This document shows, piece after piece, positions 14,407 through 57,148 of a DNA stretch of 64,000 nt. Under the pieces are notes generated by a model. The model did no database searches, was not told where the DNA came from, and worked only from the letters and a program-made list of their open reading frames with translations. Origin of the DNA: Bacteriovoracia bacterium (GTDB lineage: Bacteria > Bdellovibrionota > UBA1018 > CAIPTA01). Location of the stretch: contig JBFWVL010000005.1 of assembly GCA_050246755.1 (NCBI GenBank), forward strand, positions 193,076 to 257,075. The letters run 5' to 3'. The position numbers were made by a program, and so were the translations under genes. The stretch's first letter is position 1; the number at the start of each line of letters is the position of its first letter.

Positions 14407-14484
14407 CGGGGTATAGCGCAGCCTGGCTAGCGCACCTGCTTTGGGAGCAGGGGGTCGACAGTTCGAATCTGTCTACCCCGACCA
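14407..14484 (+). tRNA. tRNA-Pro (TGG)
   Basis: CGGGGTATAGCGCAGCCTGGCTAGCGCACCTGCTTTGGGAGCAGG...GTTCGAATC...CCCCGACCA. Confidence 0.97.
14474..14484 (+). repeat. att core, tRNA side
   Basis: TACCCCGACCA. Confidence 0.85.
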
Positions 14485-25553: not shown

Positions 25554-25931
25554 CTAGTGGCTATCGGTAGGTTTGAGGTACTCTGCTGTCTCGGTTGAGC
25601 GGGGTGAGGGCGTCACCCTCGGTCTCTGTGCTTTCGTCCGCATGGGCTTTGACTTTGGCATTAGCGCATCGGCGATGAGAAGCCTTTTTCCCTCGATTAC
25701 GAGAGCAATCAAGCGCCGTGTGCTCGCTCCATAAATGGCTTTCAGCTCCCAAAGTTTTTTGGTCGGCGGCGCGGCGATGCCGCGTTCGAAATTCGAGATG
25801 AACTGTGCGGAGGAATATCCTAGCCGTAGGCTGACCTCCCGTTGCGTAAGGTTCTTTTTTATCCGAAGTTCTTGTAGATAGGCTCCGAGCGCCGTGAATC
25901 TGCGAGCAATTAGGTACTCTCGTCCATGCAT
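25554..25931 (-). CDS. XRE-family regulator
   Basis: LTQREVSLRLGYSSAQFISNFERG. Confidence 0.85.
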   Translation of the reverse strand: MHGREYLIARRFTALGAYLQELRIKKNLTQREVSLRLGYSSAQFISNFERGIAAPPTKKLWELKAIYGASTRRLIALVIEGKRLLIADALMPKSKPMRTKAQRPRVTPSPRSTETAEYLKPTDSH

Positions 25932-26187
25932 GTAGAGTCTTCCTTTCTTTCGGATGTTTCCACGATCGATGTAGCGCTAGTTTCGAATGGATGCCAACTT
26001 GAAGCCGCTTTTACCATGGCGGTGCCAAATTTCTTTGTAGATCTTTACAACCTGAACTTCCATTCCTCCCCGAATCCCTCCGGGATTTCGCGCCACGCGC
26101 ACGGCTCTCCCCGCGCCCTCGGGTAACTTCGCCCTTGTCAATTTTCACTGATTGACGCCGTTTTCTCAAGAAATGTGGCCACGGCTA

Positions 26188-26241
26188 CGTCTACCGCAGT
26201 AGACGCAGCCGTTTTTTATCATTCGTAAACTGGAGTAGACG
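26188..26241. promoter_or_regulatory. Paired palindromic operators
   Basis: CGTCTAC-N4-GTAGACG (26188-26205) and CGTAAAC-N4-GTAGACG (26224-26241) just upstream of an XRE gene. Confidence 0.65.
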
Positions 26242-26258
26242 ATCCAGAGGCCGCCGAT

Positions 26259-26513
26259 TTGAGTCAACTATCGAAAAAGAAAGCACAGGCGCAGTATCAA
26301 CGCGCTTTCGGAAAACACCTCGCGCTGACGATTGAGCGCCGGGGCTATTCCTCGATCTACGACTTCTGGATTCGGAAGGCGGGCGACCACCTCTCGCGGG
26401 CCTCGATCAACTTTCTCGTTCTCGGCGAGAAAGACCCGAAGCTCTCGACCATCAGAATCCTCGCGCGCTTGCTGAACGTCGCCCCGAAAGACCTGCTCGA
26501 CTTCGAGAAGTAG
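26259..26513 (+). CDS. XRE-family regulator (C-protein-like)
   Basis: LSRASI..GEKDPKLSTIRILARLLNV..LLDF. Confidence 0.75.
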   Translation: MSQLSKKKAQAQYQRAFGKHLALTIERRGYSSIYDFWIRKAGDHLSRASINFLVLGEKDPKLSTIRILARLLNVAPKDLLDFEK

Positions 26514-26772
26514 GGCACGGCGGCGCGATCGGGACGGCAAGCGCGAAGCCCCTGCATACCACACGAGGCGTGCGCCTGCGCCTGGGCAGCTTCTTAAATC
26601 AGTGGGGGGAAGGGGCGCTTAACCATTTGCCTGCTGTCAACTCCGTGAACGAAATGAACCGGGAAAGTCTTCCAATAGATCCGCGTGGCCGGCGCGCCGG
26701 TCAGCGCCAGATTCTCTTTAAATGACTATATATTCTATAGTTGTGTGTCTTATGCAGCGATAACTCTTCCCG

Positions 26773-26870
26773 GTGGCCGGAATCCTGGCCGGGTAGATAA
26801 ACAAAAATCCTCTTTGTTTTCGGACTCGTTTCCAAAGCATCACCTGGGCCGTGGCCAGAAATCTGGCCAC
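26773..26870. promoter_or_regulatory. Two putative upstream activator sites
   Basis: GTGGCCG-GAATCC-TGGCCGG (26773-26792) and perfect palindrome GTGGCCAGA-AA-TCTGGCCAC (26851-26870). Confidence 0.7.
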
Positions 26871-26918
26871 TTCGCTACCAGTTCGCGGCCATTGCCCAAA
26901 ATAAAGGCAGCTCGAGGG

Positions 26919-26933
26919 TGGCACGCTCCTTGC
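26919..26933 (+). promoter_or_regulatory. Sigma54 -24/-12 promoter
   Basis: TGGCAC-GCTCC-TTGC, exact consensus, 33 bp before the activator start. Confidence 0.88.
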
Positions 26934-26966
26934 CCTTAGCAGCACACGCAAGAGAGGTAAGAGCCT

Positions 26967-28385
26967 GTGAAGTATAGGATTTTGCTAGTTGACGATAACA
27001 AGCTAGACATCGAGACGACGCTCGGAGAGTTCGCGGGTGAGGGCGATATGGAGTTCTCCACCGCGCAGACCGCCGAGCATGCGTTGACGCTCGTGAAGCA
27101 ATCCCCCGACGCCTTCGCCGTTGTCCTGCTCGACTACAATCTGGCGGGCACCACCGGCGACAAGGCAGCAAAAGACCTACTTGCCATCAACGCCCGGCTC
27201 AACATCGTGATTCTCTCGGGCGATAACACGCGCGCCGCCGCGATCAACACGCTCAAGGCCGGGGCGGTGGATTTCATCGACAAGACACTACCGCCGGAGG
27301 AGAAGATCGCGTCCGTCCGGGGCTACTGCCGCAAGTTCGACGAAGTGGCGCGCGTAGTGACTTTCGAGGCCGATGGGTCGGCCCGCGCCAAGATCATAGC
27401 CGACGCCGGGCTTATTATCGGCCGCTCGAAGGCCCTAGCCGAAGTGGCCCAACAAATCCTGCGGATCGGCGGCAGTAGCTCCACCGCGCTCGTGCGCGGG
27501 GAATCCGGTACGGGTAAGGAAGTCGTGGCGCGAGCCATACACGACCACTCCACGCGCAAGGGAAAGGCATTCGTGCCCATCAACTGCGGCGCGATCCCCG
27601 AGAACCTGATCGAAAGCGAGCTATTCGGCCACGAGAAAGGCACGTTTACCGGCGCTCTTACGAAAAAGGTCGGAAAATTCCAGCTCGCGCACGGAGGGAC
27701 CATCTTCCTCGATGAGATCGGGGAAATGCCGCTCAATATGCAGGTGCGCCTCCTGCGGGTTTTGCAAGAGGGAACGATCGACATGATCGGCGGCCGGATG
27801 CCGATGCCGGTTGACGTTCGCGTGATCGCGGCCACGAATCGAGATCTCGAAGAAGCCGTAAAAAAAGGCCAGTTCCGCGAAGACCTCTACTACCGCCTCA
27901 ACGTGATTCCGTTCTACGTGCCGCCGCTCCGAGAGCGCAAAGAAGACATTGAGCCGCTAATCTCTCATTTCGTGCGTAACCACCCAACGGGTTCCGGCAA
28001 AAAGTTCCTCTACAGCACACTAAGATACTTCCTTGATTATCCGTGGCGCGGGAACGTGCGCGAGCTGGAGAACACCATCGACCGCGTGCTTACCCTCACG
28101 CCGGATGAATACATTTCCCCTCGGCACCTGGAACCAAAGTTTTTCGGCAACGACGCCTCGGGCCTGGACTTCGATTGCGATTGGCAGACGTTTCTCGACC
28201 AGAAGAAAAAGCGCGAGGACGAGCTGGATCGGAAATTCATTTCCTACCATCTGACGAAGCACAAGTCGGTGCGCGATCTCGCCAAGTCGAAGCTCAAGAT
28301 GCCGAAATCCACTCTCCAGACTCGTATCAACGAGCTTGAAATCGACGCCGAGGAACTTACGAAGTCGGAGGAGGAATATGCTTAA
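26967..28385 (+). CDS. Sigma54-dependent response regulator (REC-AAA+-HTH, NtrC family)
   Basis: LVDD/LLDY receiver, GESGTGKE, GTFTGA, FLDEIGE, REDLYYRLNV, WRGNVREL, C-terminal HTH. Confidence 0.95.
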   Translation: MKYRILLVDDNKLDIETTLGEFAGEGDMEFSTAQTAEHALTLVKQSPDAFAVVLLDYNLAGTTGDKAAKDLLAINARLNIVILSGDNTRAAAINTLKAGAVDFIDKTLPPEEKIASVRGYCRKFDEVARVVTFEADGSARAKIIADAGLIIGRSKALAEVAQQILRIGGSSSTALVRGESGTGKEVVARAIHDHSTRKGKAFVPINCGAIPENLIESELFGHEKGTFTGALTKKVGKFQLAHGGTIFLDEIGEMPLNMQVRLLRVLQEGTIDMIGGRMPMPVDVRVIAATNRDLEEAVKKGQFREDLYYRLNVIPFYVPPLRERKEDIEPLISHFVRNHPTGSGKKFLYSTLRYFLDYPWRGNVRELENTIDRVLTLTPDEYISPRHLEPKFFGNDASGLDFDCDWQTFLDQKKKREDELDRKFISYHLTKHKSVRDLAKSKLKMPKSTLQTRINELEIDAEELTKSEEEYA

Positions 28386-29463
28386 GCAGGTTTCCGAATC
28401 CTTGGAGCGCGCGGTGTTGGGTTGGATCAACGTGGACCGCTACCTCCCGCTCCAGATCGACATTACCAACGCGTGCAATTTACGCTGTAAACATTGCTAC
28501 CACCCGCACCACAAAAACGCGGGAGCCCTTGAGCTAAGCGATTGGCTGGCGATCCTCGACCAATACGACGCCCTGACGAGAAAGCTCCGCTTCCGCCCGA
28601 ACGTAGTCATCTGCGGAGGCGAGCCGTTCTTGAGCCAGCACTTCGAGACAATCCTGCAAAACCTGCTCTCTCGTGAGAGGCCGTACCGCCTATCCGTGCT
28701 CACTAACGGCACGATCGTTGACCCGGCGAAGCTCGCGCTCCTCAAACAGTTCCCCGAGCTGAGCGTGCAGGTCAGCCTAGACGGCCCGAATGCCGAGGCT
28801 CACGATTCCGTGCGCGGGGCCGGCAACTTCGCGCGGGCGCTGAATGGGATTCGTATTTTCCGCGAGCGCGGAATCAGGGTTCACCTCTCTGCGGTTCTCT
28901 CGAAGCGCACCTCCCGCTCGATCGGGGAGTTCTTCGACCTCGCCCGAGAGCTCAACGTGACCGGTATGGGCTTCGCCCGCCTGATCGTGCAGGGATACGC
29001 GCAGAAGCTCGTTACCGAAAACGAAGACCGCCCGCTCTCGCCGCTGGAGTTGCGGGACGCCTACCGCGCCCTCATCATGGATGCCGCCCGCACCGGGATA
29101 AAGACGAGCACTAACTCGCCGCTGTTCCACCTCGTGCAGCCGGGCCTCGGGCGTAACGGCCGCTTTTGGGAAGGAATCGTGATCGACTACCGGGGAAACT
29201 ATCTTGCCAGTAGTCGCTCGCGCCTAATCCTGGGCCACGCCCTTACCGAAGGGATCGAAAATATTTTCCTGCGGCACCCGCTCTTGCAGCGCCTGCGTCG
29301 GCAGGATGTGAAAGTTTGCGGGGCTTGCCCGCACTACGCCGTGTGCGGCGGTGATCGGAATGCGGCTTACGCCGATTCCGGCGACTTCCTGGGGGCCGAT
29401 CCCGGTTGCTGGCTTTTGACGAAACAAAATCAAACAGCTGAGGAGAAAATATGCGCTTCCTGA
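28378..29463 (+). CDS. Radical SAM enzyme with partial SPASM domain
   Basis: CNLRCKHC, GGEP, TNG, VSLDG..HDSVRG, CGACPHYAVCGGD..DPGC; GGAGG SD before ATG at 28378. Confidence 0.92.
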   Translation: MLKQVSESLERAVLGWINVDRYLPLQIDITNACNLRCKHCYHPHHKNAGALELSDWLAILDQYDALTRKLRFRPNVVICGGEPFLSQHFETILQNLLSRERPYRLSVLTNGTIVDPAKLALLKQFPELSVQVSLDGPNAEAHDSVRGAGNFARALNGIRIFRERGIRVHLSAVLSKRTSRSIGEFFDLARELNVTGMGFARLIVQGYAQKLVTENEDRPLSPLELRDAYRALIMDAARTGIKTSTNSPLFHLVQPGLGRNGRFWEGIVIDYRGNYLASSRSRLILGHALTEGIENIFLRHPLLQRLRRQDVKVCGACPHYAVCGGDRNAAYADSGDFLGADPGCWLLTKQNQTAEEKICAS

Positions 29464-29789
29464 AAAAACTGACCCTGACCGTTCTTTCCGTCATGCCCAT
29501 CGCCTCGATTTCCACCGTGGCCTACTGCCAGCTCAACGAGCTGGTCGGTGAGGAACAGAACGATCTGCTGCGTGGGCAAATCTCTTCGGCTCACGCGCTC
29601 CTGATGGCTCCCGGTACGGTTTCGACGACTGAGGAAGAATCGAAGGTCTATCTTTCTCAGCAAACCGGCATCACCGACCCCAAGGAGCTTGAAGACGAGT
29701 TCCAGCGGCAACTGCGTGTGCTGGTGGAAAAGGGATTGGTAGAGAAGAACGAGAGGAACATCACTTCTAAAATTCCAAGCGAATGGTAG
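29451..29789 (+). CDS. Small secreted protein, candidate RiPP/signal precursor
   Basis: GAGGAG SD, Sec-type signal (..AYC/Q), overlaps the rSAM gene, C-terminus ITSKIPSEW. Confidence 0.7.
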   Translation: MRFLKKLTLTVLSVMPIASISTVAYCQLNELVGEEQNDLLRGQISSAHALLMAPGTVSTTEEESKVYLSQQTGITDPKELEDEFQRQLRVLVEKGLVEKNERNITSKIPSEW

Positions 29790-29794: not shown

Positions 29795-31318
29795 ATGAGG
29801 CGCGTTTTCGTTCTCATCACTTTGGGTTTGGCGCTCGGAGGTTTTTGTATGCAGCAGCTCGAAGGACAGAAGAGAAGAATCCGCGTGGCGTTTGGAAGCC
29901 CCTGGAAGACGACTCATCCGGGACTCCAGCACACGCTCGTCGGCGATCTTGTCCTGAGCAACCAGTACGAGGCGCTGGTCGGCATGAATGAGTTCGGCGT
30001 CGCCGTACCTCTCGCCGCGAAGTCTTGGGACGCGAGCGAGGATTTCAAGACGTTCACCTTCCATATCGACACGAGTAAGACGTTCTCCGACGGTGAGCAC
30101 CTTTCCGCGCGGGACTTCAAGCGGTCTTGGGAAGATGCCTTGGCGCTGGAGCCGAAGTCGAGCAATAGCAGCCTCCTCGACATTATGTATAAGATTCGGG
30201 GCTTCTCGGATTTCCCGAAAACGAAAACCATTTCTGGCATCGAGGTCGTGGACGACTCTACGCTCCGCATACACTTCGACTCCGCGTTCCGCATGGCCCT
30301 GAGCCATTTCATGGGAAACCGTTTCGCCGTCTATAAGGAGAAGGATGGTAAGTTCCTCGGGACGGGAAAGTTCGTGATCGACGAGCGGGCCGAGAATGAT
30401 CTGCTGTTCGCGCCGAATCCCCGCGATCCCGACGCGAAAAATCTGCCTTCCATCGAGGTTTCAGTCGTGAGAACCGACGAGGCGACGGCGCGCCTGCTCG
30501 ATGGTACGATCGATGTTTTCGCCTACGGGCGGGGCTCTTCCGTTTCGCCTACGATCAAAGAGAGCGGAAAGCTCTCCGTGGTCGTTGGTCAGGATGCCCT
30601 GCACGAGACGACGATCCTGAACCTTAAACATGGAAGGTTCTTTCACAACCGCCAGTATCGCCTGGCGATGCAATACCTCATCCACAAGAAGTTTTCCGCG
30701 GAGCCGGCGCTGCTCGGAAACACGGATTACTCGTCAGTGGACGCGCAGGTGTTTCTGCCGCTCCAGCCGGGCCGGATTCCAGATCAAGACGTAGAAAAAA
30801 TCATCGACAGTGGCGAGCGTTTCGTGCTGGAAATGATCGCCGCGACCAAGAAGCACCCGCTGCTGGTCTACACTTCGGAAAGCGACGATTGGCTGCTCCC
30901 ATTTCTCCGCGAGATCGGCGTGGCCGTGTCGCCCGCCTCAAAGAAAATTTCGCCGCAAGAGCGGGTCAATGTCATCTACAAGTCACACGAGCCCGACATG
31001 ATCGTGACGGCGTTCGGCGTTGCAAGCGGCGATCCCGATGGGGTCTACCACCGTCTAGGAAAGTCAGGGGCGATTATGAGCCCCATGTGCTTTAGCGAGC
31101 GCGTTTCCGCGCTCTTGGAAGATGGGCGCAAGCTGGTCGCGCAAGATCAGCTCGATCCCTTCTACCAGGGGGTGAGCCGGGCGATCCTGGAGGAAGTTCC
31201 CTTCGTTCACTTGGGGTACAGCAAAGCCGTCGCCATCTACCGAAAGGATACGGTGGACTTCGACTCCAAGCTCCTGCGCCGAAACGAGGGGCATCTACAC
31301 GGATTCAGGTTGAGGTAA
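29795..31318 (+). CDS. Family 5 (OppA/DppA-like) solute-binding protein, no permease nearby
   Basis: YEALV..PLAAKSW..TFTFHI..FSDG..SARDFKRSW, GTGKF. Confidence 0.88.
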   Translation: MRRVFVLITLGLALGGFCMQQLEGQKRRIRVAFGSPWKTTHPGLQHTLVGDLVLSNQYEALVGMNEFGVAVPLAAKSWDASEDFKTFTFHIDTSKTFSDGEHLSARDFKRSWEDALALEPKSSNSSLLDIMYKIRGFSDFPKTKTISGIEVVDDSTLRIHFDSAFRMALSHFMGNRFAVYKEKDGKFLGTGKFVIDERAENDLLFAPNPRDPDAKNLPSIEVSVVRTDEATARLLDGTIDVFAYGRGSSVSPTIKESGKLSVVVGQDALHETTILNLKHGRFFHNRQYRLAMQYLIHKKFSAEPALLGNTDYSSVDAQVFLPLQPGRIPDQDVEKIIDSGERFVLEMIAATKKHPLLVYTSESDDWLLPFLREIGVAVSPASKKISPQERVNVIYKSHEPDMIVTAFGVASGDPDGVYHRLGKSGAIMSPMCFSERVSALLEDGRKLVAQDQLDPFYQGVSRAILEEVPFVHLGYSKAVAIYRKDTVDFDSKLLRRNEGHLHGFRLR

Positions 31319-33012
31319 TGGGGCCTATCACGCTCAATCATTGGTTTCAGCGGAATGCGAGCCGGCCCTTTGCTTTGCTGGCCGTCTTTATCGCGCTCGT
31401 TTGGCTGGTCCATCTTTGGGCCTTCAACAGTGAGATTTCTACCCAACAGAGAGAGGCCGCCCGCCAGCTTGCCAACCTCCTGAGCCTTTCTTCGAGCCAG
31501 AAGAACCGCGTGCTCACGGAATCTCTGCTGGACTCCAGCCACTTGAGCTTTGCGGCAGAGGCCGCAGCCATGTGCAACGGCGGCGTGGTCGTCGCGTCGT
31601 CGAACGCCGATAACAGTTTTTGCGGCCGGCCCGGTTCTTTCTTCTATCCCAAAATGTCCTTTCCAATTCCTGGGAGCGGTGGCGCTCAGCTCGTGACGAC
31701 TTATTCAAGGTTCGGGGAGCGCTCGAACATTTGGCGCTTTTTCCTGTTCGGCCTGGCTCTCACCTGGGGCTGCTACGTACTGCTATACAAGATCAGGGAA
31801 CGATTCTGGCGCGATATTTTCCTCCCGTTCCAGGCCGGTATGATGGATGACCAGCCGCTGCCGATCGTAGAATTTGAGCAGGTTCGCCAGAAACGTAAGC
31901 TCATCGTGCAGGCCAAAGAGCGCGAAGCCGTGCTCCAGGCCGTGCTGGAGCACAAAAGCAAGGTTGCCCACAATATCAAATCCCCGCTCCGCACCCTGCA
32001 ACTGCTTCTGCAATCGCTAAAAGGAAAAATTCCCGAGCGTGAGGAGCACCTGCTCGAAGGCGTGGCTGATTCCGTGAATGACATTCTTGGGGAGCAGCAG
32101 GCACCGTTTGCGAATGGTGGCGAAGTCTCCGATGCGCTCGCGGGGAATCCACAGCCCCAAGAGCCGGAGCTCGTGCTCGTGTCGGATTTTCTCGACGAGG
32201 TACTGGCGCAGAAGTCAGCCGAGTACGCGAGGCAGAAAGCCATTTCCCTCTCGGTGGATCAATCGGAGGTGCCCTTCGGCACGTTCGCCCGAGTGGTGAG
32301 GCACGAGTTCCTAGCGATCCTTTCCAACCTCGTGAACAACGGAGTTGAAGCCATTGGCCGCCGTGCGGGCCGCGTGGAGATCGTCGCCCGCGTGAAGGAT
32401 GGCGCGATCCAGATCCAGGTGCGCGACACCGGCCCCGGCGTTCCCGAGGATCGGCGGGAAAAAATCTTCGAGAAGGGGGTTTCCTTCAAGCAAGGCGGTA
32501 CGGGCTTCGGGCTCTTCCATGCCCGGCAATACCTGGCGCAGTGGCAAGGAACCATCCAATGCCTGCCGTCGCCGCAAGGCGCGATCTTCGAGATCGGGCT
32601 GCCGGAGGCCAAGGCCCCGCCCTGGTTCGCCGATCGCGTGGCGGCTCTCGCCAAGCGGAACGTCATCATACTGGACGACAACCGGCTGATCCATCGCGTT
32701 TGGAAAGAGCGGTTCCGCAATCTGCCAGGGATGGAGAGAGCGAGACTTCACTTTCTTTCGAGCGAGGAGGAGCTAGAAGCCTGCCTCGGCGAAATCGCGG
32801 CCGAGGTATCCGATACGATCATCCTCTGTGACTACGATTTGAACCTGGCGGGAAAGACGGGCCTCGACATTGTGCGCGCCTACGGCGTGGCCTCGCTCAC
32901 TACGATGGTCACGAACAACTTTCAGAGCGGCGCGCTCATCGCGGAGTGCCTGCGCGAGAAAATCCGCATCCTGCCCAAGCCTTGCATCCATAGCGTACCG
33001 ATCACCGCCTAG
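31318..33012 (+). CDS. Membrane sensor histidine kinase with C-terminal receiver domain
   Basis: Two TM helices, AHNIKSPL, NLVNNG, DTGPG, GTGFGL, then ILDD..CDYDL..PKP. Confidence 0.92.
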   Translation: MGPITLNHWFQRNASRPFALLAVFIALVWLVHLWAFNSEISTQQREAARQLANLLSLSSSQKNRVLTESLLDSSHLSFAAEAAAMCNGGVVVASSNADNSFCGRPGSFFYPKMSFPIPGSGGAQLVTTYSRFGERSNIWRFFLFGLALTWGCYVLLYKIRERFWRDIFLPFQAGMMDDQPLPIVEFEQVRQKRKLIVQAKEREAVLQAVLEHKSKVAHNIKSPLRTLQLLLQSLKGKIPEREEHLLEGVADSVNDILGEQQAPFANGGEVSDALAGNPQPQEPELVLVSDFLDEVLAQKSAEYARQKAISLSVDQSEVPFGTFARVVRHEFLAILSNLVNNGVEAIGRRAGRVEIVARVKDGAIQIQVRDTGPGVPEDRREKIFEKGVSFKQGGTGFGLFHARQYLAQWQGTIQCLPSPQGAIFEIGLPEAKAPPWFADRVAALAKRNVIILDDNRLIHRVWKERFRNLPGMERARLHFLSSEEELEACLGEIAAEVSDTIILCDYDLNLAGKTGLDIVRAYGVASLTTMVTNNFQSGALIAECLREKIRILPKPCIHSVPITA

Positions 33013-33830
33013 CTCGGATACTTCGCAATCTGATCGAGAAGCAAATTCTTTCCATCGACGCAGCGAAAACTGCACGCCAACCCGATTTTCAACCCCGCCT
33101 TACCGCTCAGCCGAGCGCCGGGAAGAACCGCCGGAGTGCCCATCACGAGCTTCATGGGAAAGGCGGTATAAAAGTGCTCGTTCTTCATAAGGCAGACGAC
33201 GACGGCCACGTTTGCGGAAGGGTTTGCCTGGCAGTAGACGCTGAACTTGGTGTCGTACTTCCGTTCGATCCACTCCTCAATTTGATCTGGTACAGAGGCA
33301 ACGGGTCCGTTCACGCGATTCGGCGTTACCGCGTCGAAGAGCAGGATAGGGTTACCGTTCGGATCGAGAATCGCTACGTCGGCATCCTTTGGCTGTTGGC
33401 CCTTCGTTCCTTGCCCCAGCGGATACTCGATTACGACCTTGTGCCCCGGCAGCCTGCTTAGGATACTCCGGGCCAGCAGCAGCTCGTTGAGCGTATCCCA
33501 AAACGAAGAGGAGCGCAGGTTGCAGAGCTTGTCGCCGAGTTTCCTTCGCTCGTCGGCCATCAAAGAAAACTCAGTGATGGCCGCCTCGATATTCAGGAGC
33601 GCGCCCTGTGGCGTGGCGGCGTTATTACCCTGCTGGGAAAGCCCCGCCTGCTCGGAAATCAGCAGCGCCGTAAAAAGGTCCGTAACCTCGTTATCGTTGA
33701 CCTCCGGGCCGTACGGATACTTCTTCTGCGCCTGGGCGGTGAACTTCGCGCGGTCAACGCACGAGGATAGCACGGGGTACTTGTCCAAGACCTTGAAGGC
33801 GTCGGCTATAGAGCCTGGAATAGCTGCCAT
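33009..33830 (-). CDS. Hypothetical protein, possible restriction-endonuclease-like fold
   Basis: Long ORF (ATG at 33830; track start 33917); FWDTLNELLLA..KDADVAI..LLFDAV. Confidence 0.55.
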   Translation of the reverse strand: MAAIPGSIADAFKVLDKYPVLSSCVDRAKFTAQAQKKYPYGPEVNDNEVTDLFTALLISEQAGLSQQGNNAATPQGALLNIEAAITEFSLMADERRKLGDKLCNLRSSSFWDTLNELLLARSILSRLPGHKVVIEYPLGQGTKGQQPKDADVAILDPNGNPILLFDAVTPNRVNGPVASVPDQIEEWIERKYDTKFSVYCQANPSANVAVVVCLMKNEHFYTAFPMKLVMGTPAVLPGARLSGKAGLKIGLACSFRCVDGKNLLLDQIAKYPS

Positions 33831-33968
33831 GGAGCCATTATTCCACGAGCCAGATAGTGGCTCCAGCCGCGTCGCCCCATGATGGGCGTATGAAACCAAA
33901 AGCGGCCGAGCTGCCATCTGCCCGCGCTTGGCGGCAGGAAAAGCCAGGTGCTTTCGCCCACTTTCCGT

Positions 33969-34045
33969 GTGGCCAAATCTCTGGCCGCATCCAATTCGGC
34001 GAAAATCAGCGGCTTACCTACGCTCGCGGCCATGAATCTGGCCAT
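33969..34045. promoter_or_regulatory. Two putative upstream activator sites
   Basis: GTGGCCA-AATCTC-TGGCCGC (33969-33988) and GCGGCCA-TGAATC-TGGCCAT (34026-34045), same motif as 26773/26851. Confidence 0.7.
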
Positions 34046-34117
34046 TTTCGATTTCACCCGCGCCATATAAATACGGTGAATTTATAAATTACGCGCACTT
34101 AGATTCCGCCGAGAGCC

Positions 34118-34132
34118 CGGCATGGTTTGTGT
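34118..34132 (+). promoter_or_regulatory. Possible variant sigma54 promoter
   Basis: CGGCAT-GGTTT-GTGT (GG-N10-GT instead of GC), 32 bp before ATG at 34165, preceded by an AT-rich tract. Confidence 0.45.
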
Positions 34133-34164
34133 CTATAGGACTCCCAAGAACGGAGGTTCCTAGT

Positions 34165-34473
34165 ATGTCGAACACGAAACAACAACGGAAAGAAAAGAAG
34201 TGGCGGCTCCCGCGCCGCGACTCCTGCCCGCTCTGCGGCTGCAAAGAGCTGCTGACGGAAGGGCCGGATCAGTTCTGCCTTTCCTGCCCTTGGGATACCT
34301 GCGCCGAGTACGTCGAACGCGGCCTGATGAACAATCTTTCTCTCGCCTACGCGGAGCATTTCGTGTGGGGCCGCGAGCCGCGCAAGCCGCAGCCCGAGGG
34401 CGAGCTGGCGAGCGTCTTCGTGGATCGTGCCGCCGGCCCCTTGCTCGCGGCGGAAGTCGGGAAGGTTGGTTGA
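34165..34473 (+). CDS. Zinc-ribbon protein
   Basis: GGAGG SD; CPLC..CLSC. Confidence 0.7.
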   Translation: MSNTKQQRKEKKWRLPRRDSCPLCGCKELLTEGPDQFCLSCPWDTCAEYVERGLMNNLSLAYAEHFVWGREPRKPQPEGELASVFVDRAAGPLLAAEVGKVG

Positions 34474-34475
34474 TT

Positions 34476-34619
34476 ATGAGGACCATTGGCAAGGCATGGG
34501 GCCGCATCGCGGCCTCGCGGGCGTATCGAAAACTTTTCGTCGCCGAGATCGACCCCAAGAGGGTCGAGCAAATGAAAGAAGAGATGATGCAGAAATTCCG
34601 CAGAATGGGGTTCTTTTGA
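34476..34619 (+). CDS. 47-aa basic protein
   Basis: MRTIGKAWGRIAASR..MGFF, starts 2 nt after the upstream stop. Confidence 0.5.
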   Translation: MRTIGKAWGRIAASRAYRKLFVAEIDPKRVEQMKEEMMQKFRRMGFF

Positions 34620-34651
34620 TCCGGGAAGAAGAAGTGGGAGGGCATTTGTTT

Positions 34652-34981
34652 ATGAGCTTCGCAAGGCAAGTGGACCATGTGGGCATGAGAAAGAAGCTGG
34701 CGACGATCGCCACGATCGGAGAATCGCAAATTTCGCGGGTCGAACGGGAGCGGCTGTTCGTGCATACGGCGCTTTCGTACCTGCCGACCAGGGCGCGCAC
34801 GATCCTGTTTCTGCGCTTCTGGCAGGACTCCTCGTTCTGCGAAATCGCCGACGCGCTCAATCTGCCGATGCGGCTCGTGCGTGTGCTGTTCTTTCTCTCC
34901 CTCACGTATCTGGAGCGCGAACTTCGGCCGTACATCATCGAGCCCGAAGATTTCATCCGGGGGTACATCAAAGTTAGCTGA
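34652..34981 (+). CDS. Sigma70 region 4-like HTH protein
   Basis: GGAGG SD; LSYLPTRARTILFLRFWQDSSFCEIADALNL. Confidence 0.75.
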   Translation: MSFARQVDHVGMRKKLATIATIGESQISRVERERLFVHTALSYLPTRARTILFLRFWQDSSFCEIADALNLPMRLVRVLFFLSLTYLERELRPYIIEPEDFIRGYIKVS

Positions 34982-35038
34982 GTTCTAGGCGGTGCGTTTT
35001 GGGAGGGTGGCGTTAGTCGTAAGTGTGTTTGGGGATTT

Positions 35039-35389
35039 ATGGAAAATCAGAAAGATCAAAAGCAGCAGAGCCCGAAGCTGGGCCTCTTCTGGATTGATAC
35101 GGTAACCGGGAAGAGGTACGCCGCTGGCGTTGGCTTCTTCCTGCCGGAGTACGGGGAATTTCGGCTGAAAATCGACGGACCTTGGAACGAGGGCCAGGTG
35201 TTCGTCAAGCCGGTGAACGGCCAGAACGATCGCGTGAACTACCGCGTGGAAGTCGTCATCAAGAGCGGTGGCCGGTTCTCGCACCGGAGCGAGATCGGAT
35301 CGGGATACATGGACAAGAACACGGGCGGTTTCATCTACATGGACCTCGGCCCGTTCAGCCGCTGCCTCGCGCTCGAAGTCGAAGGCTAG
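35039..35389 (+). CDS. Hypothetical beta-rich protein with internal duplication
   Basis: KRYAAGVGFF..FRLKID and RSEIGSGYM..IYMDL. Confidence 0.65.
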   Translation: MENQKDQKQQSPKLGLFWIDTVTGKRYAAGVGFFLPEYGEFRLKIDGPWNEGQVFVKPVNGQNDRVNYRVEVVIKSGGRFSHRSEIGSGYMDKNTGGFIYMDLGPFSRCLALEVEG

Positions 35390-35701
35390 CTGTCTAAGAC
35401 AATTTGGTTTGTGGCCATGACGTTGGCGTTTGCCGCCGTCATGGCGTTGGTGCCGGAAATTTCGTTCGCTGACTACTACGGAGGGGGCGACTTCCAAGCG
35501 AAGATCGGCAGCCTCACGAGCAACCTCGTGAACGTGCTGGCTCCCGCCGTGGCAATTTTGGGCCTGGTCTACGCGGCGATCCTCGCTGCAATGGGCGACG
35601 AGAGTAGCAAATCCAGGATGGTGCTTTGCATCGTCGCTAGCTGCGTCTCGTTTCTGGCGCCTCTATTCATCCGCTGGATTCAGTCTTTTATGGGCGGATA
35701 G
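35390..35701 (+). CDS. virB2: VirB2/TrbC-like pilin (proposed CTG start; track start 35411)
   Basis: Signal region ending PEISFA, two hydrophobic helices, position before virB3-virB4. Confidence 0.7.
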   Translation: MSKTIWFVAMTLAFAAVMALVPEISFADYYGGGDFQAKIGSLTSNLVNVLAPAVAILGLVYAAILAAMGDESSKSRMVLCIVASCVSFLAPLFIRWIQSFMGG

Positions 35702-36019
35702 ATGGAGCTGCAATCGTCTAGCGTGCAACGAAGGCTAGACGCGAAGCTGAAGATCGCGGGGCTGGAGGCCCCCGATCTTCTCTTCGTGATGATCTTCGCT
35801 GCGGTGATGGATCTCTTTTTCGGCCGCACGAGCCTCGCGCTTCCGCTCGTGATCGTGCTGCCGGCCGCTCTCCTCGGCGTTCTCTACGTGGGGAAGCGCG
35901 ATAAGCCCGAGGGGTTCCTGGTTCATTTAGCCCGTTTTTACCTGACGCCTGGATTTCTCAGCGCAGGGGAGGAGTCGAAACACGAAGAACAGATGAGAAA
36001 ACCCATTTTTGGTAAGTAA
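35702..36019 (+). CDS. virB3: VirB3-like membrane protein
   Basis: LDAKLKIAGLE..two TM..KPEGF; between pilin and VirB4. Confidence 0.7.
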   Translation: MELQSSSVQRRLDAKLKIAGLEAPDLLFVMIFAAVMDLFFGRTSLALPLVIVLPAALLGVLYVGKRDKPEGFLVHLARFYLTPGFLSAGEESKHEEQMRKPIFGK

Positions 36020-45866: not shown

Positions 45867-46109
45867 TTGCCAAAAAGTTCATTTGGTAATAGAGTAGAAA
45901 GCACAAGTCAGGCCCTCAAAAAGCCTGACACGCTCTTTGAAAATTTCAGATGGTTAAACACGCGTGAAGCAGCGGTGTACCTGGGCACAACTCCGAAACA
46001 GATTCGGAATTGGGTCTATCAAGGAAAAATCAAAAGCTACAAACTTCTCGGGCGTAGTCTCCGATTCAGGGTTCAAGACCTCGACTCCTTACTCAAAGGA
46101 GTTTGGTAA
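45867..46109 (+). CDS. Excisionase-type HTH protein
   Basis: WLNTREAAVYLG..IRNWVYQGKI..LRF..DLD; TAATG overlap with the integrase. Confidence 0.85.
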   Translation: MPKSSFGNRVESTSQALKKPDTLFENFRWLNTREAAVYLGTTPKQIRNWVYQGKIKSYKLLGRSLRFRVQDLDSLLKGVW

Positions 46110-47263
46110 TGGGAGTTACGTCATACCGAAAGGAAGTTTCCCCCGGCGTCTTCAAGACTTTTTATCGAGTCACCGCCGAGGGCGTAAATAAGTACACCAG
46201 AAAAAGAATCCAGAAGAGACGCATCGGGATTACCTCTAAACCGAAGGCTGACGGTATTTTCCGCGAGCTGTGGGTTCAATGCCGAGAGGAGCGGCCGGAC
46301 GGCCCCCGCATCGAAAGATGGGGTGAGCTGACGGACGCCTACCTCCGCTACGTCGAGAGCCAGGTGAGGAGCGAAACCAATAAAACGGGTTTCAGCCCCA
46401 AGACCCTGGAGAAGAAAAAAAGCCGCTTCGTCCATGTGAAGGAGTGGAACGATTCTCACCTCGACCTCATCACTCCGAAATGCGTGAAGGAAACGCTAGA
46501 CGCCCTCGAAATGCGCGGCCTCGCTGGCCGCGCGTTGACGAGCGAAATCCAAAAGGAAGTGCGTTGTGTTTTCGGTTACGCGGTGGATTGCGGGTATCTC
46601 AAGGTCAACCCGTTGGCCGAGATGACGAAGCGGGAGGTTCCGAAGAGAAAGAAAAAGGCGCTCAACCCCGAGGAGGTTAAAATCCTTCTCTCGGAAGCGC
46701 GCCAGCGGAACCACCCTTACTTTTTCATCTGGCTGTTCTCGATAGCCTTGGGATTGCGGCGGAGCGAGCTGGCGGGCCTCAAGTGGTCAGACATTGATTT
46801 CGATAATGGGCTGATTACTGTGCAGCGCCAGAACCTTCCAAAAGAAGGCATCGTAGACCGTCCGAAGGATAAGGAAGAGCGAACCGTCGCTATTCCTGCA
46901 TCCGTCGTCACGGCTCTCAAGGAATGCCGCCTCAGTTCGCAAAGCGAGTTCGTGGTGGACATTGACTGTAACCAGTGGAAAGGCGGCCACCAGGCCGCCG
47001 TGTTGCGGGAGTTCTGCCGAGAGATCGGCATTAAGGAAGTAACGCACCACCGGCTACGGGCGACCCATATAACGCTCGCGCTAATCAGCGGCATCCCCAT
47101 CGGGATCGTGAAAGAGAACGTGGGGCACGCCAAGCTGAGCACGACGGATGAATACTTCAGCTCGTCGGGTATCCAGATGCGCGGTCAAATGGATGGATTG
47201 AAAATCAACGTGCCTACGGGACAGGAGGCCGAAGTCGTGCCGCTCATGGGGGCGGCGCGATGA
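46109..47263 (+). CDS. Tyrosine recombinase/integrase
   Basis: GLRRSEL, K, HRLRAT, GHA, TDEY catalytic set. Confidence 0.95.
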   Translation: MGVTSYRKEVSPGVFKTFYRVTAEGVNKYTRKRIQKRRIGITSKPKADGIFRELWVQCREERPDGPRIERWGELTDAYLRYVESQVRSETNKTGFSPKTLEKKKSRFVHVKEWNDSHLDLITPKCVKETLDALEMRGLAGRALTSEIQKEVRCVFGYAVDCGYLKVNPLAEMTKREVPKRKKKALNPEEVKILLSEARQRNHPYFFIWLFSIALGLRRSELAGLKWSDIDFDNGLITVQRQNLPKEGIVDRPKDKEERTVAIPASVVTALKECRLSSQSEFVVDIDCNQWKGGHQAAVLREFCREIGIKEVTHHRLRATHITLALISGIPIGIVKENVGHAKLSTTDEYFSSSGIQMRGQMDGLKINVPTGQEAEVVPLMGAAR

Positions 47264-47319: not shown

Positions 47320-47330
47320 TACCCCGACCA
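47320..47330 (+). repeat. att core, integrase side
   Basis: TACCCCGACCA followed by a T-run, as at the tRNA-Pro 3' end. Confidence 0.85.
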
Positions 47331-51526: not shown

Positions 51527-54500
51527 TCAGTGCTGGTCGGTAGAAGGGTTATCTGCCACGGTCAGCTTTTTTCCGGGCTCATTGGGGCCGGCGGTCCGTT
51601 TGCGGCCCACGCCTTTCTTGAGCCAGATATGAATAACCGATAGCAGTTTGTCGGGATCTACGGGCTTGGTGATATAGTCCGAAGCGCCGGCTTCGAGCGC
51701 TTTATCGCGGTCACCCTTCATGGCTTTCGCCGTGAGCGAGATGATCGGCAGGCGCTTGAACTTATTGTTCTTGCGGATCTCGGAGGTGGCCGTAAGACCG
51801 TCCATTTCGGGCATCATGGTATCCATGAGCACGATGTCCACGTCGGCATTCTCTTCCAGCAGTTTGATCCCGGCCTTGCCGTTCTCCGCGTGGAGAACCT
51901 TGATGCCACGAGACTCGAGGATCGAGTTAATGGCGAAAATATTGCGGATATCGTCGTCCATCAGCAGGATTTTCTTGCCGGAGAAATCCACGCCCTCGGG
52001 CAGGGCAGGGATATCAGCATTGTTCTCGGTGGAGGCTACGGTTTCGGTGCTCTCGCCTCTCGAGGCCTCAGGCCCCATATAGTTCTGCGGCATGTAGAGG
52101 GTGAAGGTGGAACCCGCGCCCGGAACGCTCTCCACGCGAATCCAGCCACCGAGCAAGCGCGCGATTTCGCGGCTGATCGTGAGGCCGAGGCCCGTGCCGC
52201 CGTATTTGCGGCTGGTGGTGCCATCGGCCTGCTGGAAGGCTTCGAAGATGAGGTTCTGTTTTTCGGCCGGAATCCCGATGCCCGTATCCCGCACCGCGAA
52301 GGCGATAATGGGCTGGGCCGGATTGGCCGTAGCGGCGACGCCTAGTTCTTTGGCGTCCGGCATGGAGATGGTGAGGTCCACTTTGCCGGTTTCCGTGAAC
52401 TTGAACGCGTTCGAGAGCAGATTCTTCAGGATCTGATTCAAGCGGTTCGAATCCGTGAACATATCGGCCGGTAATCCAGGGCCCATCTTGATATCGAAAT
52501 CGAGCCCTTTCTGCGCAGCCATATGGCGGAAGGTTTGCTCCACGTACTCTTGGATTTCGGGAACGCGGATCTTCTTGGGGTAGATCGGCATTTTGCCGGC
52601 TTCCACTTTGGATAGATCGAGGATCTCGTTGATGAGGCCGAGGAGATCGTTTCCGGAATCAAATACGGTTTTCGCAAACCGCACTTGCTCGCCGGTGAGG
52701 TTCCCGCCTTTGTTCTCCGAGAGCATTTTCGAGAGGATCAAGAGAGAGTTCAGTGGCGTTCTTAATTCATGGCTCATATTCGCCAAGAATTCGCTCTTAT
52801 ACTTCGAAATGAGCTGGAGCTGTTCGGCCTTCTCTTCCACGGAGCGGGAAGCGAGTTCCACCTCCTGGTTCTTGATCTCGAGCAGCTTGGCTTTCTCGTT
52901 CAGTTCTCCGGCTTGCGCCTCGAGCTCGGCGTTGGAACGCTTCAGCTCCTGGAGCAGCTCTTCCGTTCTCATGGAAGAGGAGATCATGTTCAAGATTACA
53001 CCGATGGAGTCCATGAGCTGATCGAGGAAGCTCAGCTGGTTGGGGCTGAACTGCTTGAAGGAAGCGAGCTCGATCACGGCTTTGGTTTCACCCTCGAAGA
53101 GCACGGGCAGTACCACCACTTGCTTCGGCGGAGCCTCGCCCAAACCCGACTGGATCTGGATGAAGTTTTCCGGGATATCGGTGAGGAGAATGCGCTTCTT
53201 CTCGTAGGCGCACTGGCCGATGAGATTTTCCTTCAGCTTGTAGTGCGTCTGGAGGTTCTTGCGAACGGTGAAACCGTAGCTCGCGATCAGGTTCAGCATC
53301 GCGTCGCCTTTTTCGCTGTTCTCCATCATGAAGAACCCGCCATGGTGGGCATCAATGAGGGGAGTGAGTTCGCTCATGATCAGCTGAGCCACCGACACGA
53401 TATTCCGCTGGCCTTGCATCATCCCGGAGAACTTTGCGAGGTTGGTCTTCAGCCAGTCTTGCTCTTGGTTTTTATTCGTCGTGTCCTTCAGGTTGGAGAT
53501 CATCTGGTTGATGTTATCTTTCAACTGAAGTACTTCGCCCTGCGCTTCCACGTTGATCGAACGGGTAAGGTCACCCTTCGTTACGGCGGTGGATACGTCG
53601 GCGATGGCGCGCACCTGAGACGTCAGGTTACCGGCGAGCTGGTTCACGTTGTCGGTGAGCTCTCTCCAGGTACCGGCGGCGCCGGGTACTTTGGCCTGAC
53701 CACCAAGTTTTCCTTCGATTCCTACTTCCCTGGCTACCGTCGTTACTTGGTCGGCGAAGGTACGAAGCGTATCGGTCATGGAGTTAATCGTCTCGGCCAA
53801 GGCGGCCACTTCCCCTTTGGCTTCGAGTACGAATTTCTGGTTCAGGTCTCCGTTGGCTACGGCCGTAACTACTTTCACGATCCCGCGCACCTGCGTGGTG
53901 AGGTTGGAGGCCATGAAGTTTACGTTGTCGGTGAGATCCTTCCAGGTTCCGGCTACCCCGGGTACCCGGGCCTGGGCTCCGAGTTTTCCTTCGATACCTA
54001 CCTCGCGGGCAACCGTGGTTACCTGATCGGCGAAGATACGGAGCGTGTCGGTCATGGAGTTAATAGTTTCGGCGAGCGCCGCTACCTCTCCTTTGGCTTC
54101 GAGGGCGAACTTTTGGTTAAGGTCTCCGTTCGCTACGGCCGTTACTACTTTCACGATACCTCGCACTTGCTTGGTAAGGTTGGAGGCCATGAAGTTCACG
54201 TTATCGGTGAGATCCTTCCAGGTTCCGCTCACGCCTTTTACTTCGGCCTGGCCCCCGAGCTTTCCTTCAGTACCTACCTCTTTTGCTACCCTCGTTACCT
54301 CGGCGGCGAAGGAGTTGAGCTGGTCCACCATCGTATTGATGGTGTTTTTCAGTTCGGCGATTTCGCCCTTGGCATCTACCGTAATTTTTTGCGACAAGTC
54401 GCCCTTCGCTACGGCGGTCGTTACCTTCGCGATGTTACGCACTTGGTTGGTGAGGTTAGAGGCCAATTGGTTTACGTTATCGGTGAGATCCTTCCACGTA

Positions 54501-57148
54501 CCGCTCACGCCTTTTACTTCGGCCTGGCCCCCGAGTTTTCCTTCGGTACCTACTTCTTTTGCTACCCTCGTTACCTCGGCGGCGAAGGAGTTGAGCTGGT
54601 CCACCATCGTATTGATCGTAGATTTCAACTCTGCGATCTCGCCTTTGGCGTCTACCGTGATCTTCTGAGACAAGTCGCCTTTCGCTACGGCGGTCGTCAC
54701 CTTCGCGATGTTACGCACCTGAGTGGTTAAGTTGGCGGCGAGAACGTTCACGTTGTCGGTTAGATCTTTCCACGTACCGGATACGCCGCGTACGTCGGCC
54801 TGGCCTCCAAGTTTTCCTTCGGTACCTACCTCTTTTGCTACCCTGGTTACCTCGGCGGCAAAGGAGCGGAGTTGATCCACCATCACGTTAATCGTGGATT
54901 TTAATTCCAAGATCTCGCCCTTAGCTTCTACCGTAATCTTCTGCGATAAGTCTCCGTTCGCTACGGCCGTGGTTACGTTCGCAATGTTACGCACTTGGTT
55001 GGTCAAGTTGGAGGCGAGACCATTCACGTTGTCGGTGAGGTCTTTCCAGGTTCCGCTCACGCCTTTTACTTCGGCCTGGCCTCCGAGTTTTCCTTCGGTA
55101 CCTACCTCTTTTGCCACCCGGGTTACCTCAGCGGCGAAGGAGTTCAGCGTGTCCACCATCGTGTTGATCGTATTCTTGAGGGCGAGAATCTCGCCTTCGG
55201 CGTCTACCGTAATTTTCTGCGACAAGTCGCCTTTCGCTACGGCGGTGGTTACTTTGGCGATGTTACGCACTTGGTTGGTCAAGTTGGAGGCGAGACCATT
55301 CACGTTGTCGGTGAGGTCTTTCCAGGTTCCGCTCACGCCTTTTACGTCGGCCTGGCCCCCGAGTTTCCCTTCGGTACCTACCTCTTTTGCTACCCGGGTT
55401 ACCTCGGCAGCGAAACTTCTCAGCGTGTCCACCATCGTGTTGATCGTGTTTTTCAGCTCGTAGATCTCGCCTCGCGCATCTACGGTGATTTTCTGCGAAA
55501 GGTCTCCGTTAGCTACGGCGGTGGTTACCTTCGCGATGTTACGCACTTGGTTGGTCAAGTTGGATGCCAAGCCGTTTACGTTGTCGGTGAGGTCTTTCCA
55601 GGTTCCCGATACCCCTTTTACTTCGGCCTGACCCCCGAGCTTCCCTTCGTTACCTACCTCTTTTGCTACCCGGGTTACCTCGGCGGCGAAGGAGGAGAGC
55701 TGGTCCACCATTTTATTAATTACGTCTTTAATCTGAAGAAACTCACCTTTTACGTCTACGGTGATTTTTTGCGTTAAGTCTCCGTTCGCGATTGCCGAGG
55801 ACACCTTCGATACGTCGCGTAGCTGTACGGTGAGGTTGGAGGCCATCGTGTTCACGTTGTCGGTGAGGTCTTTCCAGGTTCCCGTCACACCTTTTACGTC
55901 GGCCTGGCCCCCGAGTTTGCCTTCGGTACCTACCTCTTTTGCTACCCTCGTTACCTCGGCGGCGAAAGATCGAAGCGTGTCCACCATCGTATTGATCGTG
56001 TTCTTGAGCTCGTATACCTCGCCCCTCGCATCTACGGTAATTTTCTGCGACAAGTCTCCGTTTGCTACGGCGGTGGTTACTTTGGCGATATTACGTACTT
56101 GGTTCGTTAAGTTGGCGGCGAGAACGTTCACGTTGTCGGTTAGATCTTTCCACGTACCGGATACGCCGCGTACGTCGGCCTGACCCCCAAGGCGACCTTC
56201 GTTACCTACCTCTTTTGCTACCCTCGTTACCTCGGAGGCGAAAGAGTTGAGCTGGTCCACCATCGTATTGATCGTGGATTTCAGCTCGAGAATCTCGCCC
56301 TTGGCGTCTACGGTAATTTTCTGACTCAAGTCGCCTTTTGCTACGGCCGTCGTTACTTTGGCGATGTTACGCACTTGGTTGGTCAAGTTGGAGGCGAGAC
56401 CATTCACGTTGTCGGTTAGATCTTTCCAGGTTCCCGATACCCCTTTTACCTCGGCCTGACCGCCGAGCTTTCCTTCGTTACCTACCTCTTTTGCTACCCT
56501 CGTTACCTCGGCGGCGAAGGAATTGAGCTGATCCACCATGGAATTTACCGTGGTACCGATCCGGAAGAATTCCCCCCTTACCGGGCGGCCTTCGATCTCG
56601 AGGGAGATTTTCTGACTCAAGTCGCCTTTAGCTACGGCCGTAATTACCCGCGCTACCTCATTCGTCGGAGCTACAAGGTCTCCGATCAGTTGGTTTACGG
56701 AGTTTACGGAAGAAGCCCAGGATCCTTTCGCGGGACCCACCGAGGCTCTCTCCGTCATCCTACCTTCCTGACCTACGATCTTACCTACGCGCACTAGTTC
56801 GTGGGCGGTATGTTCATTGAGGCCGATGATGTCGTTTAGCAATTCACCTGCGCGGCTGAGGATTCCGCCTTTTTCGTTGGAGAGACGAACCGAGAAGTCA
56901 CCGCTCTTAACGGCTTTTAAAACTTCCACGAGGCTGTCGATTTCGTCCTTAGAGGAGTCGGACAATAAATCCCATTCGGTGGAAGATCCACGAGTTTGGC
57001 GCATACTCTTCAACCCGTGCCCGTTTCCGTCTCGCATCGGGACGGTGATAGGGGTGTCTTTCAATACGGGCTTTGCGCCGGCGATGGCGGCTTTGCCGCG
57101 GCCATTTTTCTTTTCATTCTTTTTTAAGGACGGATTCATCGGTTCCAC
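51527..57148 (-). CDS. Poly-HAMP hybrid histidine kinase (HAMP array-GAF-HisKA-HATPase-REC; NIK1/OS-1-like)
   Basis: 11 copies of TW(K/R)(D/E)LTDNVN at a 92-aa period; [26 protein letters not shown], receiver. Confidence 0.95.

Follow-up and report, generated by a model that had tools for sequence, protein, structure and literature searches.

Transfer of an integrative conjugative element (ICE) carried by a Bacteriovoracia bacterium appears, from its sequence, to be gated by a two-component sensor and a sigma-54 enhancer-binding protein that act on the type IV secretion operon. The element was studied in a stretch of 64,000 nucleotides, C5:193076-257075 of the source assembly, which is called the window here. 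Four palindromic sites exist in the window as two pairs, pair A in front of the sensor/activator operon and pair B in front of the transfer genes. All four lie inside the ICE, which is about 32.9 kb long and is located at a tRNA-Pro gene; its ends are provisional because the direct repeat at them is short (11 bp). The palindromes are probably enhancer sites of the element's own NtrC-type response regulator. Regulation of conjugation sets when genes spread, and the well-studied ICE switches make use of repressors, RecA-dependent cleavage, acyl-homoserine-lactone regulators or Rap-Phr peptides. Sigma-54 promoters are silent until an activator acts (PMC5095919), and such a property would suit costly transfer genes.

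In the mechanism proposed, the histidine kinase of the cassette would phosphorylate the activator (26967-28385), which would then bind pairs A and B as dimers, assemble into an active AAA+ ring and remodel sigma-54 RNA polymerase at two promoters. Firing of the promoter at 26919-26933 would give positive feedback on the sensor/activator operon. Firing of the promoter at 34118-34133, which has a variant -12 element, would start the transfer run, first with the genes of the small Cys-rich and the sigma-like protein and after them with those of type IV secretion.

Paired sites and the promoters downstream of them

The features of the two regulatory regions, together with the first two genes of the transfer run, are as follows.

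26773-26792, site A1, GTGGCCGGAATCCTGGCCGG, centre 137.5 bp 5' of the -24 GG
26851-26870, site A2, GTGGCCAGAAATCTGGCCAC, perfect palindrome with 7-bp arms, centre 59.5 bp 5' of the -24 GG
26883-26892, extra half-site of region A, TCGCGGCCAT, identical to the left arm of B2
26919-26933, plus strand, consensus sigma-54 promoter, TGGCAC-GCTCC-TTGC, 33 nt before the GTG at 26967
33969-33988, site B1, GTGGCCAAATCTCTGGCCGC, centre 140.5 bp 5' of the -24 GG
34026-34045, site B2, GCGGCCATGAATCTGGCCAT, centre 83.5 bp 5' of the -24 GG
34058-34097, AT-rich tract separating B2 from the promoter, A+T content up to 70%
34118-34133, plus strand, -24/-12-type element, CGGCAT-GGTTT-GTGTC (GG-N10-GT), 32 nt before the ATG at 34165
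34165-34473, plus strand, first transfer gene, Cys-rich protein of 102 amino acids (aa) (CPxC...CxxCxWDTC), no Pfam or NCBIfam family
34427-34981, plus strand, sigma-70 region-4-like protein, 184 aa

An earlier note on this DNA had reported G(T/C)GGCC(A/G)-N6-TGGCC sites at 26773, 26851, 33969 and 34026, and these positions were found to be exact on re-reading. Its description of the sites as palindromes holds in part: the paired GGCC motif is present at all four, but a perfect 7-bp inverted repeat exists only at 26851. The core common to all four is YGGCCR-N6-TGGCCR, with two GGCC cores 12 bp apart, and each site includes one or more extended half-sites GGCCAG(A/G). Centre-to-centre spacing is 78 bp within pair A and 57 bp within pair B, which is a difference of 21 bp (two helical turns). 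A1 and B1, as the distal sites, are nearly equidistant from the -24 GG (137.5 vs 140.5 bp), and both pairs provide at least two dyad sites in the range of about 60-200 bp 5' of the -24 element. The extra half-site was seen as a 10-mer common to intergenic regions A and B; its hexamer lies 22 bp past the right hexamer of A2.

The pattern is rare in the window, where 7 strand matches were counted vs 0.08 expected, a number reached in none of 100 dinucleotide-preserving shuffles. A fifth site, at 59948, is outside the element, inside a 132-aa frame, and has no AATC-type spacer. The whole genome (3.55 Mb, 10 contigs) contains 42 strand matches representing 38 distinct sites, so the degenerate pattern by itself is not unique. 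The earlier note had counted a genome-wide abundance of the motif against its reading; pairs not more than 100 bp apart, however, occur only twice in the genome, as A and B, with 0.04 expected under uniform placement. The four best-scoring of the other genome matches checked all fall within long open frames. Chance was rejected on the pair counts, and a dispersed repeat family (REP-like) was rejected since the genome has no other copies that are paired or intergenic. Metagenome pieces from four runs are short and mostly identical to the window. The piece over 26500-27394 has two differences, both coding, and those over 26727-27076 and 34095-34400 have none; among the pieces listed, whose coverage does not extend to the B palindromes, there was no informative variant in either regulatory region.

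The promoters described earlier were likewise found where expected. TGGCAC-N5-TTGC was read at 26919-26933 downstream of pair A, and the variant -24/-12 element follows pair B at a nearly equal distance from the start codon (32 vs 33 nt). The AT-rich tract that had been noticed after the second pair was also recovered (70% A+T at 34068-34097), and a metagenome relative, L022, has one too. The GG lies within a TGGCA-like element at both 26919 and 34118, and TGGCA[CT] is present in all six relatives. At the -12 position TTGC occupies 26930-26933; the element at 34118-34133 has the GG, the 10-nt spacing and the T and G of the -12 (34130-34133), with T replacing C. The ATG at 34165 is preceded by GGAGG, and the transfer transcript is predicted to start near 34144.

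In the genome TGGCAC-N5-TTGC has 21 copies. A relaxed pattern of the type [TC]GGCA[CT]-N5-NTG[ACT]N occurs once per about 22 kb of strand, and this frequency makes the match at 34118 weak evidence by itself. The genome encodes rpoN: a frame of 507 aa on contig C3 matches Sigma54_DBD with 215.5 bits. No sigma-70-type promoter was detected in either regulatory region by a simple scan, and no match to the integration host factor (IHF) consensus, WATCAANNNNTTR, with at most one mismatch was found between B2 and the promoter or in region A.

The sensor/activator cassette

The genes of the cassette and those that border it are listed below (ORF, open reading frame; HTH, helix-turn-helix).

25554-25931, minus strand, second HTH_3 gene
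26259-26513, plus strand, 84-aa ORF with weak HTH_3 (Xre-type) match, 5' of the activator operon, rival candidate binder
26967-28385, plus strand, NtrC-type response-regulator enhancer-binding protein, 472 aa, with receiver, AAA+ domain, GTFTGA loop and predicted C-terminal HTH
28336-29463, plus strand, radical SAM/SPASM-like enzyme
29451-29789, plus strand, 112-aa ORF whose hydrophobic N-terminus was read as a signal peptide
29795-31318, plus strand, SBP_bac_5 binding protein
31318-33012, plus strand, histidine kinase
33009-33917, minus strand, 302-aa ORF without a known family, located between kinase gene and pair B and transcribed away from the transfer operon

The receiver of the activator (Response_reg, residues 5-116) has the phospho-acceptor aspartate, and D9, D10 and D56 are invariant in all nine aligned sequences. 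The AAA+ domain matches Sigma54_activat (PF00158) at E 2.6e-71, and its loop equivalent to GAFTGA reads GTFTGA, as compared to GSFTGA in a sister element. In the AlphaFold model the C-terminus forms helices at 406-431, 435-441 and 447-456, in a block with pLDDT of 71-86. This region is conserved in six homologues with 63-92% identity, and the putative recognition helix, PKSTLQTRINEL in the window, recurs in the six as the same sequence or a near variant.

The remaining genes of the cassette bear on the signal. The radical SAM/SPASM-like enzyme has NCBIfam matches that include peptide maturases and heme-pathway enzymes, all below the cut-offs. The content of the cassette, with a maturase-type enzyme, an ORF with a putative signal peptide, a family-5 binding protein of peptide/nickel type and a kinase, is suggestive of a modified peptide as the signal. 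The cassette yielded no precursor peptide, and Vibrio-type autoinducer synthases are absent here. Compared with the small ORFs that the sister type has in this place, the 112-aa ORF shows an unconvincing likeness (13-22% identity). It could be possible that a family of such elements, in uncultured sludge and landfill bacteria, uses a private peptide-pheromone circuit, in which a maturase-modified peptide would leave the cell, be caught by the family-5 binding protein and act through the kinase and the NtrC-type activator on the sigma-54 promoter of the secretion genes, and that co-resident sister elements are kept orthogonal by exchanging activator, sensor and palindromes as one module. This idea is tentative and on balance doubtful; the maturase would be the radical SAM/SPASM enzyme in the window and a YcaO-like protein in the sister.

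Upstream of the cassette, the two Xre-type genes were assigned to HTH_3 (PF01381) at E 3e-4 and 6e-9. Between them, at 26181-26241, is a hairpin with 14-bp arms (ACGGCTACGTCTAC/GTAGACGCAGCCGT) followed by TTTTTT. A second copy of GTAGACG is located 36 bp past this hairpin, which could be a terminator or an operator.

Relatives and rival explanations

Seven loci were compared: the window, a sister element on contig C6 of the same genome and five metagenome loci (L022-L026), which were retrieved with an alignment of homologues of the Cys-rich protein. The sister element, a second and paralogous one at C6:145300-165100 (L011, L012), has the same order of secretion genes. Its genes run HTH_3, activator, SBP_bac_5, YcaO-like, kinase, Cys-rich, sigma-like and secretion genes, with the YcaO-like protein where the window has the radical SAM enzyme. 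The xis/int homologues of C6 are found at C6:51364-52682, about 100 kb from the transfer genes, so the C6 element is either very large or rearranged.

The layout in front of the transfer operon is kept among these relatives. A [TC]GGCA[CT]-N5-NTG[ACT]N element with its GG 41-46 bp before the ATG of the first gene is present in 7/7 loci, with -12 doublets GC in four, GA in two and GT in one; the canonical GG-N10-GC is found in C6, L023, L024 and L025, all of which read TGGCAY-N5-NTGCC. The C6 promoter, TGGCAT-TCTTC-ATGCC, aligns with CGGCAT-GGTTT-GTGTC of the window and both are followed by TATAGGA. Between the kinase stop codon and the Cys-rich gene C6 carries GTTCGGATTTCCGAAC and GTTCGGATTCCCGAAC, 79 bp apart, with centres 98.5 and 177.5 bp 5' of the -24 GG (computed by hand). 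GTTCGG-N4-CCGAAC has only two copies in the genome, both at the C6 element, and a pair of it exactly 79 bp apart exists in all four of C6, L023, L024 and L025; in the alignment, conserved islands mark the palindromes and the promoter. Of the two palindromes of L026, one is a variant, TTCAGAACTCCGAA, and the other is degenerate. L022, whose Cys-rich protein is the nearest to that of the window (85% over 52 aa), has ...CCATCTGGCCAC upstream, which is a right arm of the window type located 84.5 bp from the GG, vs 83.5 bp in the window. A pair of dyad sites precedes the transfer operon in 5/6 loci with at least 200 bp of upstream sequence; the palindrome sequence in C6 and L023-L025 differs from that of the window. 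As a separate observation, a conserved block GAACGA-N3-GCTAAC is present between the sister-type palindromes (L011:15437-15456) in 5/5 aligned loci and holds a CGAAC-like half-site.

Between the window and C6 the secretion module is conserved and the sensory module is not. VirB4 is 82% identical and the rest of the transfer-run proteins 48-82%; identity falls to 40% for the activators and 25% for the kinases, the binding proteins have no match at 1e-5, and the palindromes are unrelated in sequence. Since the secretion module is alike and the sensory module and the palindromes differ, the palindromes were swapped along with the sensor/activator module, while the promoter and operon behind them stayed conserved. 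C6 and L024, whose activators are 85% identical, have in common the putative recognition helix AKATLHGR(I/M)K and the palindrome. A kinase homologue ends just 5' of the palindromes in 5/5 non-window loci with upstream sequence, and the activator gene is present in all three loci that reach far enough. We infer the activator to be the occupant of the sites because of where they lie and because activator and palindrome were swapped jointly. With an 82%-identical VirB4 and different activators and palindromes, the sister elements of this genome provide a natural test of regulatory re-wiring and avoidance of cross-talk.

The search for relatives extended further. Among 127 genomes of the class, strong matches were obtained only in the own genome, and four others gave weak ones (E 4e-5 to 6e-4). 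A DNA search matched, apart from the sister element, only the AAA+ core of paralogous activators, and no relatives were found in viral contigs or plasmids. L013, the one locus from 47 pattern matches in genome contigs, has 37% identity to residues 30-75 (E 3e-6), its upstream region looks coding and has no comparable layout, and it was excluded from the counts. The 20 matches listed for the region 33600-35100 or parts of it represent 12 studies, with metagenomes of landfill, bioreactor sludge, wastewater and activated sludge; three of these matches are flagged as possibly the source of the DNA.

The relatives also bear on what pair B controls. B1 is 52 bp 5' of the first possible start codon of the divergent 302-aa gene, with which the transfer operon has a 247-bp intergenic region in common, so that the pair might control this gene instead of or besides the transfer operon. 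The sites and promoter are, however, kept in all five relatives with upstream sequence, where the 302-aa gene is not at this position and a kinase end on the same strand is found instead; the gene cannot account for a family-wide layout. Nor is there a -24/-12-like or sigma-70-like element on the minus strand of the intergenic region. Control of the 302-aa gene is therefore a very unlikely role for the pair.

It was also considered whether the palindromes act in RNA, as hairpins that terminate or insulate against read-through, and not as protein-binding DNA. Their folding energies range from -8.5 to -15.8 kcal/mol, short T runs follow B2 and both sister-type palindromes, and in the sister type the first palindrome comes immediately after the kinase stop codon. 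However, only one of the four window sites has a T tail. The arms GTTCGG/CCGAAC are invariant in C6, L023, L024 and L025 while the central four bases vary, the L026 variant GTTCAG...CCGAAC breaks the pairing, and hairpins at two unrelated 3' ends would not need an identical sequence. We regard a hairpin function as highly improbable.

No greater likelihood can be given to binding by the sigma-70 region-4-like protein encoded by the second transfer gene, by which a feed-forward loop would arise. This protein has an HTH and is 41% identical between the element types. In L022, however, it resembles the sister-type protein (59.5% over 121 aa) more than the window protein (41%), including the helix after the LP motif, and yet the palindrome arm of this one locus is of the window type.

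More serious is the possibility that the palindromes are operators of an Xre-type repressor, encoded at 26259-26513 (plus) or 25554-25931 (minus), which silences both operons while the activator uses other sites or does not bind DNA. Xre dimers bind short palindromes. Two HTH_3 genes stand directly 5' of the cassette, an HTH_3 gene likewise precedes the activator in the sister type, and this gene was replaced between the element types (no tblastn match at 1e-5), so it co-varies with the palindromes as the activator does. On the other hand the sites are located 60-140 bp 5' of the -24 element and do not cover the promoter, the position expected for a repressor of sigma-54 polymerase. The divergent region between such regulators is the usual place of self-regulation, but the one that separates the two HTH_3 genes (25932-26258) lacks YGGCCR sites and carries the different repeat GTAGACG. 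If a repressor occupied the palindromes, no other conserved upstream element would remain as a site for the activator. An Xre-type operator is thus unlikely, though less so than the three readings above.

Several points weigh against enhancer sites bound by the activator. The swap of the Xre-type gene along with the activator means that covariation cannot separate these two candidates. The C-terminal HTH of the activator scores 16.1 bits with HTH_50, vs a Pfam cut-off of 27 bits, and the C-terminus gave no significant match when compared by sequence with the PDB. In a position weight matrix scan of the genome the four sites scored 21.4-29.3 and the next matches not more than 19.4, a top rank that is circular because the matrix was trained on these sites. 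Just one relative of the window type, L022, was retrieved, and its contig starts within the upstream palindrome. The spacings of 57-79 bp are wider than those of textbook NtrC sites. In E. coli the GG and the TGC are the sigma-54 positions that seldom deviate, according to Bonocora et al. (PMC4591121). The C of the -12, one of these five positions, is replaced by T in the window and by A in both L022 and L026. Confirmed E. coli promoters that also have no C at the -12 appear in Table 1 of that paper, namely pspA (TTGGCACGCAAATTGTA, TTGT), pspG (TTGGCATGATTCTTGTA, TTGT) and hydN (CTGGCATGATTTGTGAA, GTGA) (PMC4591121), which makes the deviation in the window unusual yet precedented.

Finally, no palindromes were found before the activator operon in either of the two sister-type loci with sequence upstream of the activator gene, in the whole genome for C6 and within 10 kb upstream for L024. 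Autoregulation is thus not a trait of the family. The proposal of the earlier note that one activator drives both its own operon and transfer gains partial support on the transfer side, by promoters in 7/7 loci, dyad pairs in 5/6, the module swap, rpoN and the activator domains, but own-operon sites exist in the window only.

The transfer element and comparison with known systems

The ends of the element and the rest of its transfer run are as follows.

14474-14484, putative attL, TACCCCGACCA, 3' end of tRNA-Pro (14407-14484), followed by a T run
35039-45842, plus strand, type IV secretion and DNA-processing genes
35411, plus strand, TrbC/VirB2
36009-38432, plus strand, VirB4
40960, plus strand, CagX/VirB9
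41760, plus strand, TrbI/VirB10
42602, plus strand, FtsK-like coupling protein
44113, plus strand, Replic_Relax
45867-46109, plus strand, excisionase-family gene (TIGR01764)
46103-47263, plus strand, tyrosine integrase (Phage_integrase)
47320-47330, putative attR, second copy of TACCCCGACCA, just past the integrase, followed by a T run

The 11-mer of attL and attR has only two copies in the window. The element possesses what is expected of an ICE: an integrase, an excisionase, TrbC, a VirB4-like protein, CagX, TrbI, FtsK_SpoIIIE and Replic_Relax, with end repeats of which one is in a tRNA. All genes from 34165 to 47263 are on the plus strand, and no convincing plus-strand terminator was found in the transfer run before 47448. 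Because the run has several gaps of 100-260 bp, a single transcript over the 13 kb, xis and int included, is something we infer from the common strand only.

The Cys-rich protein, with its CPxC...CxxCxWDTCAEYVERG motif, has 29 homologues in a large protein collection, all of them without a family name. It and the sigma-like protein could act as a second tier of regulation, placed after the sigma-54 promoter and before the secretion genes. Outside the element the window carries a hybrid histidine kinase of 1873 aa (51527-57148, minus strand) that contains about 12 HAMP domains as well as one GAF and one receiver domain. A PAS/GAF hybrid kinase at 57517-59769 adjoins it.

Among the closest known systems is NtrC (NR-I) acting at glnAp2 in enteric bacteria. 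As in the window, a response-regulator AAA+ activator controlled by phosphorylation has paired dyad sites about 100-140 bp 5' of a GG-N10-GC promoter. The best NCBIfam match of the window activator is ntrC (E 1.5e-102), with 343.8 bits vs a cut-off of 558.6 bits, so it is not an NtrC equivalog; the solved chains closest to it, 4l4u and 1ny5, belong to the NtrC family. Unlike glnAp2, the window has half-sites with GGCC cores 12 bp apart, sites 57-78 bp apart and, as target, the conjugation operon of a mobile element.

PspF is an activator that lacks a receiver domain. The E. coli promoters that it drives, pspA/pspG, and hydN resemble the window (GTGT) and L022/L026 (TGAC) in having no C at the -12 (PMC4591121), and the regulons are unrelated. 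A cell-cell signal is turned into expression in Vibrio by a phosphorelay that feeds LuxO, an NtrC-type sigma-54 activator (PMC4878744). The NCBIfam LuxO model matches the window activator at E 6e-82, below its cut-off. LuxO drives small RNAs and not a transfer operon. On the TOL plasmid, a conjugative element, the combination of a sigma-54 promoter with upstream activator sites is found at Pu, where XylR controls catabolic genes; work by de Lorenzo et al. in 1991 reportedly dealt with XylR on this promoter. XylR senses its effector directly, without a kinase, and an IHF site is part of Pu, whereas the regulatory regions of the window have no match to the IHF consensus.

Sensing encoded by the element itself is known to license transfer in RapI-PhrI of ICEBs1, in the pheromone plasmids of Enterococcus, and in TraR with acyl-homoserine lactone of Ti plasmids and ICEMlSymR7A. 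None of these switches is known to use sigma-54 or an enhancer-binding protein. A term search in the searchable text of an ICE review (PMC5812530) gave no match for two-component systems, and rpoN only in the title of a reference. The main text of two broad sigma-54 regulon surveys (PMC3162934, PMC12316311) has no occurrence of 'conjug'. Full-text literature searches found neither sigma-54-controlled transfer of an ICE nor modular exchange of an activator and its enhancer between sister elements. The parts of the system are familiar ones, namely an NtrC-type activator, enhancer sites and a sigma-54 promoter; what is new, by the literature searched, is their use to gate the transfer operon of an ICE.

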